From the NCBI GenBank assembly GCA_041658125.1, contig JBBAAS010000002.1:8951-72950 (forward strand): a stretch of 64,000 nt of DNA. The letters run 5' to 3'. Both the position numbers and the translations under genes were made by a program. The stretch comes from Candidatus Shapirobacteria bacterium (GTDB taxonomy: Bacteria > Patescibacteriota > Microgenomatia > UBA12405). Shown one piece after another: positions 6,686 through 14,173 of this stretch (within the stretch, counting starts at the first letter, position 1; every line of letters begins with the position of its first letter). A model generated the notes under the pieces. The model ran no database searches, was not told the origin of the DNA, and saw only the letters and a list, made by a program, of their open reading frames with translations.

Positions 6686-6770
6686 GGAGGGTGGGCAGGA
6701 TGGTAATGCGCTGGTTTCGAAAACCAGTGTCCGCAAGGACTAACAGGTTCGACTCCTGTACCCTCCGCCA
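6686..6770 (+). tRNA. tRNA-Ser (anticodon CGA), CCA encoded
   Basis: Perfect 7-bp acceptor stem GGAGGGT/ACCCTCC with discriminator G. Anticodon stem CTGGT/ACCAG with loop TTCGAAA. Long variable arm with GTCC-GCAA-GGAC. T arm CAGG-TTCGACT-CCTG. Confidence 0.85.
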
Positions 6771-6848
6771 ACTGGGAAAAGCGGGCGAATTCAGCAAAAT
6801 TCGCCAGCCAATATTGCCCTGAAATCCGAAATTTTTATCTTTTAAAAC
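6765..6848. repeat. IR-A left copy (84 bp), overlaps the last 6 nt of tRNA-Ser
   Basis: Exact reverse complement of 8226-8309 by direct base-by-base comparison. It contains an internal hairpin GGCGAATT-CAGCAA-AATTCGCC. Confidence 0.9.
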
Positions 6849-7073
6849 GAAGTTCGAGCCGATATTTTTTAAGAAACTCCTAAATTCATAAGGATTGTTT
6901 TTCTTCAATAACATTTTGGCTTGGCTGGCGGATAAAATCATTTCTTTCACAAGTTCGAGCCAATTATTTCCTTTTGATTCAAAATCTTTTAAACCCTGCT
7001 CGATGACAGCTTGTTGATTGATAAACAAATTTTTCTTGGTAAGGTATTGTCGGTTGTCAATTAAGTTGTCGAG

Positions 7074-8201
7074 TCAGAAATTTAGCAGGTCGTCGAGTTT
7101 CCGATTGATTTCCACTTTTTGGGATAAAAGATTTTGAATCAATGGTTGAGACTGATTTTTAGCTTGATTGGTTTCTTTGTCCAACTCTACCAACATCTTT
7201 TTTACCCAGTCTTTAGGCAAAGAAACTTTTTGAATTTTGATTTTGATTTGGTTGATCAATTCTTCCTCTCGCAAATATTTTTCGGGACAATTACCTTTCT
7301 TTTTGGTACAACGATAATAGTTGTGGCCTTTTTGAGTTTCGGCAGTAATTAAGCAACCACAGCCACCACACCTCATTAGTCCCGAAAAAATAAACTCGTG
7401 TTTACGTTTTCGTTGTTTTTTGCCACGGTTACTCATCACCTCTGCTACTAAATCAAAAAGTTTCTTAGAAATAATTGGCTCATGAACTCCTTTGTATAAT
7501 TCACCATTGAATCGAATCAGTCCGTAATAAATTGGATTTTGCAACATAAATTGGACACGGGATTCAGATAAAGTTTTATCCTTGTAACTTTTAAGGTTTG
7601 ACTTAGCGAAAAATCCGGCAATACCTTTCAGGGTACAATCTCCCGATGAGTACATTTCAAATGCCTTTTTAATTAACTTTGCCTTGGGTATATCAATATC
7701 AATTCCTTTGGTTTTACGATTATTGATGTAGCCTATCGGTGCAAAAGACGGCCACAAACCATTCTTTAATTTTTGTCTAATTCCTCGCCGGATATTTTCG
7801 CTTAAATTGTCAACATAATATTTACTCTGACCAAAGGCAATATTTAACATAAACTTTCCCTGTGGAGTTGAGTCAAACCAAAAAGTGGGAAACTTTAAAT
7901 CAAGAATTTTCCCCGTGTCCAATAAATAAATGATTTTTCCGCCATCAATAGAATTTCTTGCCAATCTATCAGGGTGCCATGCAACAATGCCCTGCGCTTC
8001 GCCCTTTTCCATTCTTTCAATCATTTGATTAAAAACAATCCTTCCTGGTTTCTTGGCAGTTTTTGCCTCGGTAAACGAGGCAACGATTTCAATTTTTTGA
8101 ATTGTGGCAAATTCTTTTAATTCAGCAATTTGATCGCCAATACTTTTGATTTGTCTTTCCTCACTGTCAGTTGATTTTCTAGCGTATAAAAAGTATTTCA
8201 T
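7074..8201 (-). CDS. Large serine recombinase (resolvase/integrase family)
   Basis: 375 aa. N-terminal YARKSTDSEE...DRLARN serine-recombinase catalytic motifs. Recombinase domain and a zinc ribbon CGGCGC...YYRC...C, followed by a C-terminal coiled coil. Confidence 0.85.
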   Translation of the reverse strand: MKYFLYARKSTDSEERQIKSIGDQIAELKEFATIQKIEIVASFTEAKTAKKPGRIVFNQMIERMEKGEAQGIVAWHPDRLARNSIDGGKIIYLLDTGKILDLKFPTFWFDSTPQGKFMLNIAFGQSKYYVDNLSENIRRGIRQKLKNGLWPSFAPIGYINNRKTKGIDIDIPKAKLIKKAFEMYSSGDCTLKGIAGFFAKSNLKSYKDKTLSESRVQFMLQNPIYYGLIRFNGELYKGVHEPIISKKLFDLVAEVMSNRGKKQRKRKHEFIFSGLMRCGGCGCLITAETQKGHNYYRCTKKKGNCPEKYLREEELINQIKIKIQKVSLPKDWVKKMLVELDKETNQAKNQSQPLIQNLLSQKVEINRKLDDLLNF

Positions 8202-8225
8202 TTTTTTAAGCCCGCATTTGGCCTT

Positions 8226-8309
8226 GTTTTAAAAGATAAAAATTTCGGATTTCAGGGCAATATTGGCTGGCGAATTTTGCTGAATTCGCCCGCTTTTCCC
8301 AGTTGGCGG
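8226..8309. repeat. IR-A right copy (84 bp)
   Basis: Reverse complement of 6765-6848. It abuts IR-B and overlaps it by 4 nt. Confidence 0.9.
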
Positions 8310-8424
8310 TGTGCATTCGAAAAAATTCGAACAGAATTTTTAAATTTATAATGACGGGCGAGGTCGCCCCCACCCGACCTGCCCGCCGTGGTGGGACTGC
8401 CCGCAAAAAACAGAGGATTTCAAT
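8306..8424. repeat. IR-B left copy (119 bp) with GC-rich structured core
   Basis: Reverse complement of 13398-13516 with one mismatch at 8412. The core at 8356-8404 contains the hairpin GGGCG-AGGT-CGCCC, the dyad CCCACC...GGTGGG and a tandem CTGCCCGC. Confidence 0.9.
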
Positions 8425-8496
8425 AAAACTGCCAAAATATCGGCTCAAACTTCTTTCGGGCCAAATGCGGGCCTTTGAAAAAATTAATATTCCACT

Positions 8497-8766
8497 TTGG
8501 CATATTACATTATGGAATATATGATAGTAATTATCAAGATGATGGATAAAACGATATTTACCAGAGAACATAAGCTACTTACCAAACTACTTAGACAAGC
8601 CCGAATAGACGCGGGTTTGGATCAAATCCAGGTCGCAAAACTTTTGAAAAAAACTCAATCCTATGTATCAAAAATCGAATCAGGCCAAAGAAGAATTGAT
8701 ATTATTCAACTTAAAGAATTCGCCAGAATCTATAAGAAAAACATTAATTATTTTTTAGATAAATAG
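8497..8766 (+). CDS. XRE-family HTH regulator (R-M controller C-protein-like)
   Basis: HTH_XRE signature QIQVAKLLKKTQSYVSKIESGQRRID. A likely start at MMDKTIF gives about 75 aa. It ends 3 nt before the next ORF, which is the typical C-R arrangement. Confidence 0.6.
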   Translation: MAYYIMEYMIVIIKMMDKTIFTREHKLLTKLLRQARIDAGLDQIQVAKLLKKTQSYVSKIESGQRRIDIIQLKEFARIYKKNINYFLDK

Positions 8767-8768
8767 AT

Positions 8769-9608
8769 ATGGATACCCTTTTAACGAAAAAAGATGCAAT
8801 AAAATTGATTGGTTTAGATTCAAAAACTTTTGATAACTACTTTCGAAATGCCGATGAATTTACCAGTCAAAAGAGAATTAATGGTAAAGGTAGATTTTTA
8901 TTCAGTAAAAGTTTGCTTGATAAATGGCTAACTAGTTATGAGTGGAGAACAATTGAACTTACCTACGATGATTATGTGTTGTGTTTAGATTTCGCGTTGG
9001 CTCAGCATTTTCGAGGATATGTTCTATCTGATTGGGGTACTGCCAGACAAAGAGAATTTGGTCAAAAAATTACCAATTGGATAAAGGGTCAATTGGCCGA
9101 AGTAGCAGTAAAAAAATTTTTTAAGAGGGAATTTAACGCTGATATCGAGCTCGATTTTGGAATTCACAAGAATATCGTACCTCAAGATATTATCAGCGTA
9201 TCCATAAATGGATCAAAAAGATTACCCAGGGTTGGTATCGGTATTAAGGCCTCAAAACCAAAAAGTTCATATTTAGTTTTGGGAGAAAATGAAATAATTA
9301 TTTCAGAAAGAAGATCTGACTATTATATTTTTTGCAGGCCGGATATCCCCGATGACCATCTACTTAGACTGACTAAAGAAAAAATAACCAAAATTGTTAG
9401 TCAGCAACCCCATTTTGATAAATATAAAGATGATATTCCAAGTTTCGAAAATATATTCTGTGAGATTAGCGGGTGGTGCGGAGTTGATGAACTTGAAAGG
9501 GTTACAAGTATTCCAGGTCAAGATTTTACGGGGGTTAGGTATGTTAAAAAATCCGGACACTTACACAAAAATAAATCAGATTGGCAGAGATTAATCGACA
9601 AACTTTAA
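8769..9608 (+). CDS. Putative restriction endonuclease with N-terminal excisionase-like (HTH_17) domain
   Basis: N-terminus LLTKKDAIKLIGLDSKTFDNYF...INGKGRFLFSKSLLDKWL fits the HTH_17 pattern. It is convergent with the C5-MTase and directly downstream of the C-protein. The REase assignment is inference from context. Confidence 0.35.
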   Translation: MDTLLTKKDAIKLIGLDSKTFDNYFRNADEFTSQKRINGKGRFLFSKSLLDKWLTSYEWRTIELTYDDYVLCLDFALAQHFRGYVLSDWGTARQREFGQKITNWIKGQLAEVAVKKFFKREFNADIELDFGIHKNIVPQDIISVSINGSKRLPRVGIGIKASKPKSSYLVLGENEIIISERRSDYYIFCRPDIPDDHLLRLTKEKITKIVSQQPHFDKYKDDIPSFENIFCEISGWCGVDELERVTSIPGQDFTGVRYVKKSGHLHKNKSDWQRLIDKL

Positions 9609-9612
9609 AGAC

Positions 9613-10725
9613 CTAAAAAAGTGATTTTTGTCCGTTGCCATTTCCATTGGTCAGTTTTGGTAGCACCCATTCGTAGGGTATTTTGGCAAATGTTTTTAAG
9701 ACAGCTTCTACTATGACTTTTGCACCTTTCGGCGGCACTGCCATTCCGATTTGCTTCCTCACACTTTCCTTTGAACCTTCAAACACAAAATCATCAGGAA
9801 AAGTTTGTATCCTTGCTCTTTCTCTATTAGTCAACGCTCTGTTTTCATTCCAATGATATACATGCGTTCCTCCTCCACCGCTACCGGTAATAGTATACGA
9901 TGGTTTGTCTGGATGGAGTCGACGATATATCTGACTCATCCTAGCACCTTTTACATTTAATCTAAGATATTCTGGAATACCTTCATACCATGCGTTTTCT
10001 CCCGGGGGAATATATTTTAATCTTTCGATGACTAGTTTACCTTGTCTTGTAGTTTCATGGTTTGGAGCACTTGGACTAATTGGAGGGCTTTCAATGGCCT
10101 CTTTTGCTGTCAAGTATTTATTTACGGTTATCGGCTTCGGTACCTTAAACTTAAGTCCTAAATCCTTTCTGATACCTACAATTACCACCCTGTGTCTTGT
10201 TTGAGGTACACCATATTCTTCAAATTTATAAAGATGAGCGGTTATTGTATACCCCTTACCTGCATTTTCTAAATCCTCAAGAATTTTTATAAAAGAGTTT
10301 CCATCGTTAGCACTTTGTATACCACTCACATTTTCAGCCATAAACCACTGTGGATTGCGAATATTAATAGCTTTTAATCCATAGGTATATAAAGGACCGT
10401 ATTTCCCATTGAATCCTTTCTGCTCACCGACAACACTAAAGTCATTACAAGGGAAACCAAAGGCTAGGACGTCAAAATCAGGAACATTATTAAAATCAAT
10501 AGTTTCTACAGGAGCGCAAACAACTTTTGAGGAGGAATCATTATGGTGAATGTTGCGAGCATACGTTTTACAAGTGCTTTCATCTATATCATTGGACCAA
10601 ACTGGTTTGACTTGGATAAGCTTCCCGAACCGATCAATTACTTGAGCTTGTGTTGCACCTAGAGATAACCCCCCTGGACCACAAAACAACTCTGCAAGTT
10701 TGAATGTTTGAGTATTTTTTTTCAT
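9613..10725 (-). CDS. DNA (cytosine-5)-methyltransferase
   Basis: Motif I FCGPGGLSLG, motif IV GFPCNDFS, motif VI ENV, QTRHR. The start is set at MKKNTQ, whose ATG forms an ATGA overlap with the vsr stop. The track ORF extends to 10800. Confidence 0.9.
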   Translation of the reverse strand: MKKNTQTFKLAELFCGPGGLSLGATQAQVIDRFGKLIQVKPVWSNDIDESTCKTYARNIHHNDSSSKVVCAPVETIDFNNVPDFDVLAFGFPCNDFSVVGEQKGFNGKYGPLYTYGLKAINIRNPQWFMAENVSGIQSANDGNSFIKILEDLENAGKGYTITAHLYKFEEYGVPQTRHRVVIVGIRKDLGLKFKVPKPITVNKYLTAKEAIESPPISPSAPNHETTRQGKLVIERLKYIPPGENAWYEGIPEYLRLNVKGARMSQIYRRLHPDKPSYTITGSGGGGTHVYHWNENRALTNRERARIQTFPDDFVFEGSKESVRKQIGMAVPPKGAKVIVEAVLKTFAKIPYEWVLPKLTNGNGNGQKSLF

Positions 10726-11123
10726 AGTAACTTTTTTAGTCTTTTTATTAAATCCCCCTCTTCTCTTGTTTGACATTCCCAAATTATAGACGTTTTCCAT
10801 CCCAATCTTCTTAAATCTGTTATGGCTAGTCTTTGCAGTAGTAGATTTTTCTGAAGTTTTTCTTTCCAGTAAACTTTATTTGTTTTTGGAACTACACTCT
10901 TTTTACATCCTTTATGTTGATGCCAAAAACAACCGTTGATGAAAAGTGCGGTTTTGATCTTCGATATCACAATGTCCGGTTTGCCGGGTAATTTATTATT
11001 ATGAAGACGATACCTCATTCCCAAACTTGTTAGCATCTTTCTGGTAATTACTTCCGGTTTTGTATGCTTACTCCTAATTCTGGACATACAAAAACTTCGT
11101 TGTTTCTCTGTTAAATCATCCAT
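10722..11123 (-). CDS. vsr: Very-short-patch repair endonuclease Vsr
   Basis: 133 aa. SRIRSKHTKPE...LPGKPDIV...ALFINGCFWHQHKGC...PKTN..YW..K...N..RD...LGWKTSIIWECQ matches the Vsr signature. Confidence 0.85.
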   Translation of the reverse strand: MDDLTEKQRSFCMSRIRSKHTKPEVITRKMLTSLGMRYRLHNNKLPGKPDIVISKIKTALFINGCFWHQHKGCKKSVVPKTNKVYWKEKLQKNLLLQRLAITDLRRLGWKTSIIWECQTREEGDLIKRLKKLL

Positions 11124-11164
11124 CTTTTGTTATTTTGTCTAAGATTACTATTTTTAATTTTTGG

Positions 11165-11776
11165 TTAGAAAATGTTTGGATTGTATGTAAATACACTTTT
11201 TACAATTCCTTCTATACGAAAATCGGATGAAGCAATAAAAGTAGGAAATTTTTGATTAAATGAAGTGAGCAATATTTGTTTATCAAAGTGTTGATATTTT
11301 TTTATTAGCACTTCTTCATTATTAACACATACAATGATGTCTCCGTTATTAGCTTTGTTTGATTTTTTTGCTATTACTAAATCACCCGGATTTATTTTTG
11401 GTTTCATGGATTCACCTTTAGCTTTAACCATAAAGGCATCTGTTGATGAAAATCCTAGAATTTTACTCGAAATAGGTATTTGATCAATCGGGTTTCCGTC
11501 TAAAATCGATCCGTTTGGCCCACACTGAGCCATTCCATAAAGATTTAAATAAGTGATCAACTTTTCTGGTGTGTCACCGATAATTTGATAATCTTTTGAA
11601 TTACCGGGGTTTCTTCTCAAATATCCTAATTTTTCCAATTGAGTAATGTGGTGAAACACAACGCTTGGTGAGGATGCTCCCAGTTCTTCCTGAAGTTCTC
11701 TCATTGTGAGAGGGTTTAGTTGATATTTCTTAAGCAGTTGTAATAACTTTTGTTGGACAGGATGGATGTTTTTCAT
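11165..11776 (-). CDS. LexA/CI-like S24 peptidase repressor
   Basis: N-terminal winged-HTH (SVVFHHITQLEKLGYLRR) and a C-terminal S24 domain with GESM serine and a downstream Lys (KAKGESMKPKINPGDLVIAKK). It is divergent from the NTase operon. Confidence 0.8.
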   Translation of the reverse strand: MKNIHPVQQKLLQLLKKYQLNPLTMRELQEELGASSPSVVFHHITQLEKLGYLRRNPGNSKDYQIIGDTPEKLITYLNLYGMAQCGPNGSILDGNPIDQIPISSKILGFSSTDAFMVKAKGESMKPKINPGDLVIAKKSNKANNGDIIVCVNNEEVLIKKYQHFDKQILLTSFNQKFPTFIASSDFRIEGIVKSVFTYNPNIF

Positions 11777-11811
11777 TTATATATAACCATTTTAATCTAT
11801 ACTTTTTACCA

Positions 11812-11853
11812 TGTCAAGAACTTGTTGACTTGTTCTACTATTTGTTCTACAAT
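11812..11853. promoter_or_regulatory. Back-to-back divergent promoters overlaid with GAAC/GTTC-type repeats (putative operator)
   Basis: Plus-strand TTGACT (11825-11830), 17-bp spacer, TACAAT (11848-11853). On the minus strand, TTGACA (rc of 11812-11817), 17-bp spacer, TAAAAT. The inverted pair AGAAC (11817-21) / GTTCT (11832-36) and three direct TTGTT[CG] repeats (11822, 11831, 11843) overlie both -35 boxes and the spacer. Confidence 0.5.
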
Positions 11854-11881
11854 GGTGTTATTTAATAAAACAATTAATAAT

Positions 11882-12664
11882 ATGGATTCTGAAAATTATT
11901 TGCTTCAAATTTTACAAAAATATCAAGCTCGAGATCTATCAAATAGTTCTCCCGCTATATCTCAGTTATTTAGTGTACTTAGGACTTGGGCTAATACTGG
12001 ATTTATCGATTTAGTTATTTCTGGATCACGGGCAAAAGGAACGGCTATATCTTTAGCCTCTGACGTTGATTATCTGGTATCCCTGACAAATGGCTGTGAT
12101 GAGAATAATGGAGGTCTAGAGTATATCTATAATTCTCTTTTCAATACGCTCAATACCACCTATCAAAATGTTCGCAAACAAAATGTTTCCATAAGAATAA
12201 ATTTGTCAGGTCTAGAAATAGACGTAACTCCTGCTAGAAAACAACCTGGAAACACAAATGATCATAGTTTGTTTGTTTCTAAACAAGGAACATGGAAAAA
12301 GACAAATATTCAAAAACACATTACCGATATATCTCAGTCTGGAAGAATTAACGAAATTAAATTAGTAAAAATTTGGAGAGAGCTAAATAAACTTGACTTT
12401 CCGTCGATATATTTGGAATATTTACTGGTAGATGTCGTGTTGTCTGGTAAATCCAAAGGTGATAACAATATTGCAACTAATTTTCTTTTTGCTCTTTCAG
12501 AACTTGGCAGGAGTACAAACAATCCATTACTTACTAGAGTAGTCGATCCGGCTAATTCTACTAATATACTCTCTGATTTACTGACAAGTAGTGAAAAAAA
12601 CTTAATTATTAATAAAGCAAGAGAGTCATCCCAAAAATCAAATTGGGGTTATATCGTATGGTAA
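11882..12664 (+). CDS. Pol-beta superfamily nucleotidyltransferase, CD-NTase/SMODS-like
   Basis: GSRAKGTAISLASDVDYLV fits the GS-x(n)-DxD motif, and LEIDVTPA gives a third acidic residue in an h[DE]hhPA context as in cGAS/DncV/OAS-type NTases. The length is 260 aa. The start is chosen downstream of the mapped promoter; the track ORF starts at 11750. Confidence 0.6.
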   Translation: MDSENYLLQILQKYQARDLSNSSPAISQLFSVLRTWANTGFIDLVISGSRAKGTAISLASDVDYLVSLTNGCDENNGGLEYIYNSLFNTLNTTYQNVRKQNVSIRINLSGLEIDVTPARKQPGNTNDHSLFVSKQGTWKKTNIQKHITDISQSGRINEIKLVKIWRELNKLDFPSIYLEYLLVDVVLSGKSKGDNNIATNFLFALSELGRSTNNPLLTRVVDPANSTNILSDLLTSSEKNLIINKARESSQKSNWGYIVW

Positions 12665-13380
12665 AAAATATAAACAATAAAATTGATATGAAGAAATTAT
12701 TTTCTGCTCTAGACGAAGAGATGAGCCTGAAATTGTCCAGTAAGATTGACGAGATACATCACCCTGTGGCTAAAGGTAATGAGACCGAACTAAATTGGAT
12801 AGGACTATTGAAAAAGTATCTTCCAGAGAGATATAAGGTAGATAGTGGGTTTGTTGTTGACCATGAGGGAAGTTTTAGTGACCAGATTGATTTAATCATT
12901 TATGACCGGCATTTTACTCCGTTTATATTCCGTGGTGAGAATGTTGCCTATATACCCGCCGAAGGGGTGTACGCGGTTTTTGAAATCAAACCAGATTTGA
13001 ATAAGACCTATTACGACTATGCTGTAAAAAAACTTAATAGCGTTAAGGGATTAAAAAGAACTTCCTCAAATTTCACTCATATCATGGGGAATAGTAAGAA
13101 AGATCCGTCTGAGATAAGCGGAGGTATATTAACTAAAAAAATTAGTAGTCAAAAATTTTTTAATGGTTTAAAAACTGGAGAAGAACTATCATTTGTCTTA
13201 TGTCTCGATTGTGGTGTGAAAATTATTGGTCAGGATAAAATTGAGATACAGATCAATAAACCAATATTAGCCTTCTTCTTGCTAAAACTAATTGAAAAAC
13301 TACGATCGATGGGGTCTGTATCGGCATTAGACGTCGACAGTTATTTGGAACAAGTAAGAGATAAGCCCGAAGTCAAATAG
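12658..13380 (+). CDS. PD-(D/E)xK (Mrr-cat/NucC-like) nuclease-fold protein, putative effector
   Basis: ELNWIGLLKKYL...SDQIDLIIYD...VYAVFEIKP matches the D...ExK restriction-endonuclease-like core. Its ATG at 12658 overlaps the NTase stop (ATGGTAA), which indicates translational coupling. Confidence 0.45.
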   Translation: MVKNINNKIDMKKLFSALDEEMSLKLSSKIDEIHHPVAKGNETELNWIGLLKKYLPERYKVDSGFVVDHEGSFSDQIDLIIYDRHFTPFIFRGENVAYIPAEGVYAVFEIKPDLNKTYYDYAVKKLNSVKGLKRTSSNFTHIMGNSKKDPSEISGGILTKKISSQKFFNGLKTGEELSFVLCLDCGVKIIGQDKIEIQINKPILAFFLLKLIEKLRSMGSVSALDVDSYLEQVRDKPEVK

Positions 13381-13397
13381 GAGAATTTGCCACAAAA

Positions 13398-13516
13398 ATT
13401 GAAATCCTCCGTTTTTTGCGGGCAGTCCCACCACGGCGGGCAGGTCGGGTGGGGGCGACCTCGCCCGTCATTATAAATTTAAAAATTCTGTTCGAATTTT
13501 TTCGAATGCACACCGC
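13398..13516. repeat. IR-B right copy (119 bp)
   Basis: Reverse complement of 8306-8424 (118 of 119 identical). Confidence 0.9.
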
Positions 13517-13552
13517 AGTCCGTCTGATATGTATAAAATTGTAGAATAGCTT

Positions 13553-14173
13553 ATGAAACAACTTTTTTTGACATCGAGCGGCGATTATGTGATGGATGAT
13601 ATTGTTAAAAAATTACCTAAAAAACCAAGTGAGTTGAATTTGGCTTTTATCAATACGGCGGCCGAGGTAGAAGAGGGCGATCATTGGTGGGTTTTGGCTG
13701 AAAAAAAGAAATTAGTAGAAGTGGGTTTTAAGGTCGATGAATTTTCAATTAAAGGAATGACGAAAGAAGAAATTGAAAATAAATTAAAGAATAAACAGAT
13801 TATTTATTTTTGCGGGGGAAATACCTTTTATTTACTGGACCAAGTGATAAAAACCGGCTGTGACGAGATTATTACTAGGAAAATTAACGAAGGAGTAATT
13901 TATATGGGATCCAGCGCCGGGTCGATGATTGTCGGAACGAGAATTGATTTGATGTCTACGATTGACGAGAAGTCAAAAGCGCCGGATTTAAAGTCGACTG
14001 GCTTAAATATTGTCGACCTGTCAATTTTACCCCACTGGGGTAATGATACTTTTAAAGAGGGATATTGTGGTGATTTTCAATCGATGTATACCGAAGGAGT
14101 GAAAATAATTTCCCTAACTAATCAACAGTATGTTTGGATAAAAGACGATTCGATGCAAATAATTCAAGTTTAG
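13553..14173 (+). CDS. Peptidase S51 family (peptidase E / cyanophycinase-like)
   Basis: N-terminus MKQLFLTSSG, plus GGNTF and GSSAGS motifs. Confidence 0.7.
   Translation: MKQLFLTSSGDYVMDDIVKKLPKKPSELNLAFINTAAEVEEGDHWWVLAEKKKLVEVGFKVDEFSIKGMTKEEIENKLKNKQIIYFCGGNTFYLLDQVIKTGCDEIITRKINEGVIYMGSSAGSMIVGTRIDLMSTIDEKSKAPDLKSTGLNIVDLSILPHWGNDTFKEGYCGDFQSMYTEGVKIISLTNQQYVWIKDDSMQIIQV

Follow-up and report, generated by a model that had tools for sequence, protein, structure and literature searches.

A known CBASS type that appears to lie under LexA-type damage-responsive control in a genomic island of a Candidatus Shapirobacteria bacterium

How bacteria silence lethal immune operons, and how they switch them on, is an active question, and it is raised anew by a locus in a 64,000-nucleotide (64-kb) stretch of DNA, here called the window, from a Candidatus Shapirobacteria bacterium, a member of the candidate phyla radiation (CPR)/Patescibacteria (contig JBBAAS010000002.1, positions 8,951 to 72,950). 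In this locus a gene for a LexA-like repressor stands divergently, with 105 bp between, from a gene for a nucleotidyltransferase (NTase) that is followed directly by a nuclease gene. A preliminary description of the DNA proposed that the pair was a new kind of antiphage system of the type that signals through cyclic oligonucleotides (CBASS), gated by the SOS response. [quoted passage not shown]

The open reading frames (ORFs) behind this reading were confirmed at the coordinates first given for them. The LexA-like ORF occupies 11165-11776 on the reverse strand (203 amino acids) and the NTase ORF 11882-12664 on the forward strand (260 amino acids). The nuclease ORF, which extends to 13380, begins with an ATG at 12658 that shares bases with the stop codon of the NTase gene (ATGGTAA); from this start it encodes a protein of 240 amino acids. 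As each of the three ORFs has hundreds to thousands of homologues as well as significant family matches, none of them is a chance ORF. The motifs that had been noted in them (GS-x11-DVD, EIDVTPA and QIDLIIYD...FEIKP) are all present.

The NTase has the signature of pol-beta nucleotidyltransferases. Its catalytic residues are G48-S49, followed after 11 residues by D61-V62-D63 and then by E-I-D114-V-T-P-A, and G48-S49, D61-x-D63 and D114 were invariant in 18 homologues. The PADLOC Cyclase model PDLC00803 matched the protein over its full length (residues 1-260, 3.7e-81), and Pfam SMODS scored 34.5 bits against a threshold of 26.5. Two NCBIfam equivalogs, CBASS_cyclase_a and CBASS_cyclase_b, gave 60 and 49.5 bits, below their cut-off of 200. 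By sequence, the best solved relative was CdnC of E. coli MS115-1 (2.2e-9). For the structure prediction only close homologues were submitted; the AlphaFold model was weak (mean predicted local distance difference test score, pLDDT, 60; below 50 in the N-terminal half), and its six best Foldseek matches in the PDB were CdnC or CdnD (4e-7 to 3e-4, template modelling score of about 0.54). We therefore take the fold search as supportive only. An identity with AbiEii, MNT or antibiotic nucleotidyltransferases was rejected, as no such family appeared among the Pfam, NCBIfam or PADLOC matches. On these comparisons with Pfam, PADLOC, NCBIfam, PDB and Foldseek, the NTase is of the CD-NTase/SMODS kind, as had been suggested; by homology it is a short CdnC-like CBASS cyclase, and it is predicted to synthesize a cyclic oligonucleotide.

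The nuclease (12658-13380, forward strand) was compared in the same way. The PADLOC model 'Effector, Endonuclease (NucC)' matched it over its full length (2.9e-74), the other PADLOC NucC model matched at 5.2e-47, and Pfam DUF6602 matched at 1e-31. Used as the phmmer query, the 245-amino-acid ORF that starts from a TTG at 12643 aligned, from about residue 7 to residue 237, with NucC of known structure from Serratia, Vibrio metoecus, E. coli MS115-1 and P. aeruginosa, with E-values from 5.7e-39 to 5.3e-32 (Serratia 7zgv, query residues 7-237, 5.7e-39; Vibrio 6uxf, 1.5e-35; E. coli 6p7o, 1.6e-35). The active-site motif of the window protein is ID-x30-EIK (QIDLIIYD...VFEIKP); the published NucC motif is ID-x30-EAK, with Asp73, Glu104 and Lys106 in the E. 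coli protein (bioRxiv 10.1101/694703). The preliminary description was right to see a restriction-endonuclease-fold effector here. It had also supposed that about 120 extra C-terminal amino acids formed a ligand sensor, but that region belongs to the NucC fold, which aligns with solved NucC from end to end, and we rejected a novel nuclease with an added C-terminal sensor because the entire protein aligns in this way. NucC is activated by cyclic tri-AMP (cA3), upon which trimers assemble into hexamers that cut double-stranded DNA (dsDNA; bioRxiv 10.1101/694703). Thus, the 240-amino-acid nuclease is, by sequence, a NucC, and cA3-dependent hexamer formation and dsDNA cleavage are predicted for it.

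No genes for HORMA, TRIP13, E1/E2 or SAVED proteins were found in the operon, in agreement with the first reading of the locus; the operon is bounded by the LexA gene upstream and by a repeat, R, and an S51 peptidase gene downstream. Because these accessory genes are absent, we file it as Type I and not as Type III CBASS. The suggestion that the NTase-nuclease pair represents an undescribed CBASS type does not stand, since CD-NTase and NucC without further genes are already on record as a Type I arrangement, and such an operon, XpCdnC03-NucC, has been tested against phages before (bioRxiv 10.1101/2023.05.21.541620). The window CBASS is another member, from a CPR bacterium, of an already known type.

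The CD-NTase belongs to a large family (1693 matches, about 260 amino acids long), and the best 120 of these matches are 61-71% identical to the window protein and carry source names from several phyla. A protein identical to the window NTase is recorded from a Candidatus Shapirobacteria metagenome-assembled genome. Of 79 genome loci with a family member, 31 have NucC directly downstream of it. In a large share of the nearest relatives the gene is instead preceded, directly and on its own strand, by one for a 175-amino-acid CBASS '1TM effector' (PDLC00664, 3.4e-82). Two further features of these relatives may be recorded here. In four loci (L013:9496-10251, L009:1603-2340, L038:9477-10211 and L042:6111-6896) a third gene of 244-261 amino acids follows NucC; it was scanned in L013, where it is Cas4-like (PADLOC Cas4, 4e-11), and the window lacks it. 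The homologous CD-NTase of a Candidatus Gracilibacteria contig (L037:7145-7687) is apparently divided into two ORFs under genetic code 11. Such a split is expected if UGA is read there as a sense codon (code 25).

The divergent gene encodes a LexA-type repressor with a winged helix-turn-helix (wHTH) and an S24 peptidase domain (Pfam LexA_DNA_bind, 4.2e-8; Pfam Peptidase_S24, 6.3e-21; TIGR00498 matched below its cut-off). It aligned over its whole length with solved LexA repressors, residues 7-195 pairing with residues 7-195 of E. coli LexA (1jhf). The catalytic dyad of Ser123 (in G-x-S-M) and Lys159 is invariant in the family. Thus, the earlier identification of a LexA-type S24 repressor is borne out, its catalytic apparatus is intact, and self-cleavage, at Cys85-Gly86, is predicted. 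More than 1000 proteins of about 200 amino acids belong to the family, and identity to the window protein is 62-85% among the best 120; named members come from Patescibacteria, Parcubacteria and Margulisbacteria. We rejected a phage CI-type repressor or a phage-borne cassette: a scan of IMG/VR viral contigs with the family alignment did not find the family, the best S24 matches being at most 40% identical. In Pfam and PADLOC the protein matched no WYL, CapH, CapP or kinase model. The sole capH-like match was weak (2.5e-5) and fell on the controller protein of a neighbouring restriction-modification (RM) system, and no peptidase or kinase gene adjoins.

Does the repressor have a place to act? 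The two best sigma-70 matches in 11100-13600 stand back to back in the intergenic region and overlap GAAC/GTTC half-sites. One, P_lexA, faces the lexA gene (11789-11817, reverse strand; TTGACA-17-TAAAAT, 11 of 12 positions matched), and the other, P_cbass, faces the CBASS operon (11825-11853, forward strand; TTGACT-17-TACAAT, 10 of 12). The half-sites form a tripartite operator at 11817-11849, which on the lexA strand reads TAGAAC-N6-TAGAAC-N10-GTTCT. AGAAC (11817-11821) overlaps the -35 element of P_lexA, and the operator is thus predicted to be autoregulatory. One GTTCTA (11832-11837) lies within the spacer of P_cbass, and the other (11844-11849) runs from the spacer into its -10 element. 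A search of the 64-kb window for further operator copies found none, so that this is the single exact instance of the motif there.

The same arrangement recurs in relatives of the window LexA. We aligned the regions upstream of LexA family members (58-85% identical to the window protein) from 85 loci, which gave 68 distinct regions. TAGAAC-N6-TAGAAC-N10-GTTCTTGAC was present upstream of LexA in 51 of the 68. As the motif has just 62 matches on both strands of the 973 kb that make up those loci, it is essentially confined to LexA upstream regions. A divergent sigma-70-like promoter (at least 9 of 12 positions) facing away from lexA was kept in 37 of the 51 motif-bearing loci, and the -35 hexamer TTGACT of the cargo-facing promoter was conserved between half-sites 2 and 3 in 29 of them. 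With the motif in three-quarters of the regions and the divergent promoter retained alongside it, we conclude that the bidirectional operator-promoter is a conserved property of the LexA module itself. The shared operator-promoter that had been proposed for this locus is therefore present and conserved across related loci, and repressor binding to it is predicted.

Two observations concern this intergenic region and its counterparts. Upstream of LexA in L125 (about 670-790) the operator has a variant form, TAGTAC/TAGTAC/GTGCT in place of TAGAAC/TAGAAC/GTTCT, which may be a coordinated change of half-site specificity. In the window, no obvious Shine-Dalgarno sequence precedes the CBASS operon, and none is evident at the start of lexA (11776-11794), where the -10 element of P_lexA ends 12 nt before the ATG; the lexA and CBASS mRNAs may be near-leaderless.

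What lies on the two sides of the operator in other genomes? On the far side from lexA, a divergent gene starts within 350 nt in 46 of 55 distinct loci. This cargo is hypervariable (145 proteins fell into 85 clusters), and much of it has to do with immunity. CBASS was the divergent cargo in at least nine loci. One of them, L114, carries the same CD-NTase and NucC as the window, and the others have mostly a 1TM effector with a CD-NTase, then followed in four by an E2 gene. The cargo also included a Pycsar cyclase (1e-62), ThsB-type TIR proteins (one with an 8xMP membrane protein), E1/E2-BubE operons, a caspase-DEAD helicase, and DUF763, radical SAM and AbiTii proteins. For several cargo families that recur, neither Pfam nor PADLOC gave a match. 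A recurrent pair (L142:185-1425, L132, L147, L109, L115) consists of a protein of about 100 amino acids with weak GIY-YIG similarity and a 308-amino-acid protein for which no Pfam or PADLOC match was found; lying under the same LexA operator, it is a candidate for an uncharacterised defence pair.

On the near side, LexA heads an operon of its own, and members of its family stand at the front of restriction-methylase operons in many uncultivated bacteria. In the window the order is lexA, vsr and a C5 cytosine methyltransferase gene: the Vsr very-short-patch T:G mismatch endonuclease (10722-11123, reverse strand; Pfam Vsr, 2.5e-31; TIGR00632, 123.5 bits, above the cut-off) is followed by the C5 cytosine DNA methyltransferase (9613-10725, reverse strand; Pfam DNA_methylase, 3.8e-75; PADLOC MTase_II, 1e-117), whose likely ATG at 10725 overlaps the vsr stop codon (ATGA). 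The preliminary description had placed LexA correctly as divergent to the NTase pair but overlooked this lexA-vsr-methyltransferase operon. Beyond it, on the forward strand, are an HTH_3 controller (C) protein of an RM system (8497-8766; Pfam HTH_3, 1.9e-12; PADLOC control protein/HTH) and a candidate type II restriction endonuclease (8769-9608; PADLOC REase_II, 4.9e-17; no Pfam match). Among relatives, a co-directional gene lies within 400 nt of lexA in 44 of 56 distinct loci. We classified 79 distinct proteins from the gene chains downstream of lexA on its strand: 23 were C5 methyltransferases, 10 Vsr, nine Eco57I-type methylases, six N6_N4 methylases, five N6_Mtase and three D12 methylases. 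In L006 (9877-11403, reverse strand) a 508-amino-acid protein joins a LexA-like N-terminal part to a type II DNA methyltransferase (residues 197-504; PADLOC MTase_II, 1e-46), and a CBASS whose CD-NTase is of the same family lies at a distance of about 1 kb.

Because the repressor and its operator recur with varied methyltransferases and varied immune systems, we regard the LexA module as a portable damage-responsive control unit and not as a mere neighbour of CBASS. The more general proposal that this LexA/S24 family constitutes a portable damage-sensing module, with a methyltransferase operon on one side and a hypervariable slot for abortive infection systems (CBASS I/II, Pycsar, TIR, E1/E2-Bub and caspase-helicase) on the other, is one that we advance tentatively.

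Based on these results, we propose a model for how the locus could work. A dimer of the LexA-family protein would bind the tripartite operator, a step suggested by the architecture and by comparative genomics. As the operator lies within the spacer and -10 element of P_cbass and over the -35 element of P_lexA, the bound repressor would keep the CBASS operon and also the lexA-vsr-methyltransferase operon silent. When DNA is damaged, RecA filaments on single-stranded DNA (ssDNA) would be the signal that triggers self-cleavage at Cys85-Gly86 through Ser123 and Lys159, and this would de-repress the CBASS operon together with Vsr and the methylase. The filaments could come from phage replication, from cutting of incoming DNA by the island's own restriction enzyme, or from self-restriction by that enzyme, which would arise when methylation lags on the host chromosome, for instance just after transfer to a new host.

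The second part of the model is the immune response itself. De-repression would only arm the system, as the CD-NTase would still need its own phage cue before NucC is turned on. Upon that cue the CD-NTase would, by homology, make a cyclic oligonucleotide, most likely cA3, because cA3 is the activator of characterised NucC. The signal would bind NucC trimers, the resulting hexamers would shred dsDNA, and the infection would be aborted.

Several points weigh against this model. LexA binding, its cleavage, the induction of the operon and the SOS gating of CBASS are steps that we infer from sequence; for the regulatory link we draw on architecture and recurrence, and for the cA3 product and the RecA dependence on what is known of NucC and LexA. 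The predicted structure of the CD-NTase is of low confidence, with its mean pLDDT of 60. The LexA protein scores 94.9 bits on TIGR00498, where the equivalog cut-off is 110.95. Its cleavage site, invariant in the family, is Cys85-Gly86 (A-Q-C-G-P) and not Ala-Gly. Cys-Gly is the cleavage site of UmuD, so self-cleavage remains plausible. Last, in related loci methyltransferases are the steadier companions of LexA and CBASS the less steady, and the CBASS could be a passenger whose promoter merely abuts the operator.

Seen from the side of the CD-NTase, too, the association is sparse. A LexA-like neighbour occurs in just 4 of the 79 loci of the window CD-NTase family, so LexA control is a minority arrangement there. 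In those four loci (L005, L010, L014 and L023) the LexA-like gene is upstream and divergent; a 1TM-effector gene stands between it and the CD-NTase gene in L005 and L010, and LexA directly abuts the CD-NTase in L014 and L023. Their LexA proteins have a canonical Ala-Ala-Gly site and are just 23-29% identical to that of the window; the lineages are independent, and the pairing of LexA with a CD-NTase has therefore arisen more than once. In L010 (3775-8774) the LexA-like gene heads an operon of a Cap5-like HNH-SAVED effector, a CD-NTase and an E2 protein and also faces the 1TM-effector and CD-NTase pair, so that two CBASS systems surround one repressor.

An alternative to damage control by a dedicated module is that the window LexA is a housekeeping SOS repressor near which RM and defence genes have accumulated, the adjacency to CBASS having no dedicated regulatory meaning. 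The protein does have the length and architecture of LexA, JGI and NCBI label family members as 'repressor LexA', and one relative (L082) adjoins umuDC-like and SRAP genes while another (L083) lies among housekeeping genes. We nevertheless consider this alternative unlikely. About 12 unrelated metagenome contigs with differing flanks carry, collinearly and at 68-71% nucleotide identity, the block (8488-11855) that holds the C protein, the restriction endonuclease, the methylase, Vsr and LexA. Named homologues from Patescibacteria/Parcubacteria and Margulisbacteria are 62-66% identical, closer than one would expect between phyla if LexA were inherited vertically. The LexA operator has a divergent promoter built in, and in L006 LexA is fused to a methyltransferase. 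Even if LexA were a housekeeping repressor, the operator overlaps P_cbass, and the CBASS would still be SOS-regulated.

The setting of the gene in the window bears on the same issue. The whole block lies in an island of about 6.7 kb between a tRNA-Ser gene and the S51 peptidase gene (13553-14173), bounded by repeats and equipped with a recombinase, which supports the mobile-cassette context noticed at the outset. At its left end the 3' end (..CCTCCGC|CA) of tRNA-Ser(CGA) (6686-6770, forward strand; ARAGORN and Rfam) abuts an 84-nt repeat, P (6765-6848, forward strand), which is 100% identical, in inverted orientation, to 8226-8309. The right end is the 136-nt repeat R (13381-13516, forward strand), with an inverted copy at 8306-8441; the R copies are 93-99% identical. 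The inverted copies of P and R (8226-8441, reverse strand) lie directly upstream of the start of a large serine recombinase (6828-8201, reverse strand; Pfam Resolvase, Recombinase and Zn_ribbon_recom, and tblastn). This gene is one frame with an in-frame TGA (7076-7074) that aligns with Q or Y in homologues, and compared with homologues 53% and 43% identical to it, it is without about 110 C-terminal residues. It is therefore probably a pseudogene, and the island is probably immobilised.

Three junctions (6765-6868, 8226-8456 and 13381-13516) share the core CCGC, where P meets the 3' end of tRNA-Ser, R meets P, and R meets host DNA. They look like attL (tRNA and P), an internal, intact attP-like site (R and P) beside the recombinase, and attR (R and host) of a serine-recombinase element; the internal inverted copy may be an assembly artefact. 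Repeats P and R were not found in 164 other loci, and we rejected the idea that a wider family of elements has them as its att sites or as conserved ends of its cassettes. A structured RNA in R was not supported either (fold z-score -1.8; in the window Rfam found tRNA genes only). ORFs of 62-121 amino acids over P and R (8206-8571, reverse; 8303-8524, forward; 13373-13561, reverse) share 'VCIRKNSNRIFKFIMTGEVAPTRPARRGGTARKK'; we rejected them as genes and regard them as by-products of repeated DNA.

Quite improbable, in our view, is that LexA controls the lexA-vsr-methyltransferase operon only, as a feedback on restriction damage or a timer for RM establishment, and that CBASS is transcribed independently. 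This would agree with the at least five classes of methyltransferase found co-directional with the LexA family, with the L006 fusion and with the hypervariability of the cargo. On the other side, two of the three half-sites are within the spacer and -10 element of the cargo-facing promoter, the -35 hexamer of that promoter is conserved, and divergent genes start close to lexA in most loci. Thus, half-sites inside the cargo promoter and the island context weaken both this explanation and that of a housekeeping LexA. Finally, the idea that the pair is a toxin-antitoxin system, or an antibiotic/MNT-type nucleotidyltransferase with an unrelated nuclease, and not a signalling defence, takes some comfort from the sub-threshold NCBIfam cyclase matches, but it is effectively refuted by the full-length matches to CBASS cyclase and NucC models, by best solved relatives, CdnC and NucC, that come from a single operon of E. 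coli MS115-1, and by the absence of AbiEii, MNT and KNTase families from the Pfam, NCBIfam and PADLOC matches.

If damage control by the LexA module is correct, DNA breaks from first-line restriction, or from self-restriction after transfer, would boost methylation and arm a second-line suicide system. A compact LexA module of this kind would join restriction, SOS signalling and abortive infection in one cassette, and its variable cargo slot could serve as a 'guilt-by-association' probe for new defence genes.

How does the locus compare with known systems? Compared with Type I CBASS that has a clade-C CD-NTase and NucC, such as the XpCdnC03-NucC operon, and with the type III CdnC-HORMA-TRIP13-NucC operon of E. 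coli MS115-1 (bioRxiv 10.1101/694703), the window operon likewise has a CD-NTase closest to CdnC and a full-length NucC with an ID-x30-E-x-K site, encoded by two genes whose stop and start overlap. It differs in that its CD-NTase has 260 amino acids as against about 320, that HORMA and TRIP13 are lacking, that the host is a CPR bacterium, and that a LexA-type repressor lies upstream. The RM genes resemble systems under C-protein or HTH-methyltransferase control (review PMC3874152) in that a C-protein and restriction endonuclease unit is paired with a separately regulated methylase unit, but here a LexA-type damage sensor stands first in the methylase unit. That review does not count LexA among RM components and names it solely as the SOS regulator that unbalanced RM induces, and in the open-access literature we did not find a LexA-headed RM methylase operon.

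Three classes of DNA-damage-responsive regulator of immune operons have been described: CapW (PMC9122588), CapH with CapP (bioRxiv 10.1101/2022.04.27.489752) and CapK with CapS (PMC13373217). Like them, the window LexA is encoded upstream of the immune operon on the opposite strand, its family is associated with several CBASS types and with other immune systems, and it is predicted to lift repression upon DNA damage. In contrast, the Cap regulators sense ssDNA through a WYL domain or work with a separate metallopeptidase or with a kinase, whereas the window regulator is a single wHTH-S24 protein, predicted to cleave itself on RecA filaments and to be co-transcribed with RM methyltransferases. 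None of the three described classes uses the classical LexA mechanism, and no LexA/S24-type regulator of CBASS, of other immune operons or of RM was found in the open-access literature. Thus, the CBASS of the window is of a known type, whereas the damage-responsive control over it appears to be of an undescribed variety, which, if confirmed, would form a fourth and mechanistically distinct regulator class beside CapW, CapH/CapP and CapK/CapS.

LexA or SOS control of self-harming or mobile functions is itself familiar from colicin operons, tisB, symE, SetR of SXT and lambda CI. The window locus shares with these an autoproteolytic S24 repressor and operators that lie over the promoter of potentially lethal genes. 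It differs in its predicted target, a cyclic-oligonucleotide immune system together with an RM methylase; in its tripartite GAAC/GTTC operator, which replaces the single palindromic SOS box; and in its Cys-Gly cleavage site, as in UmuD.

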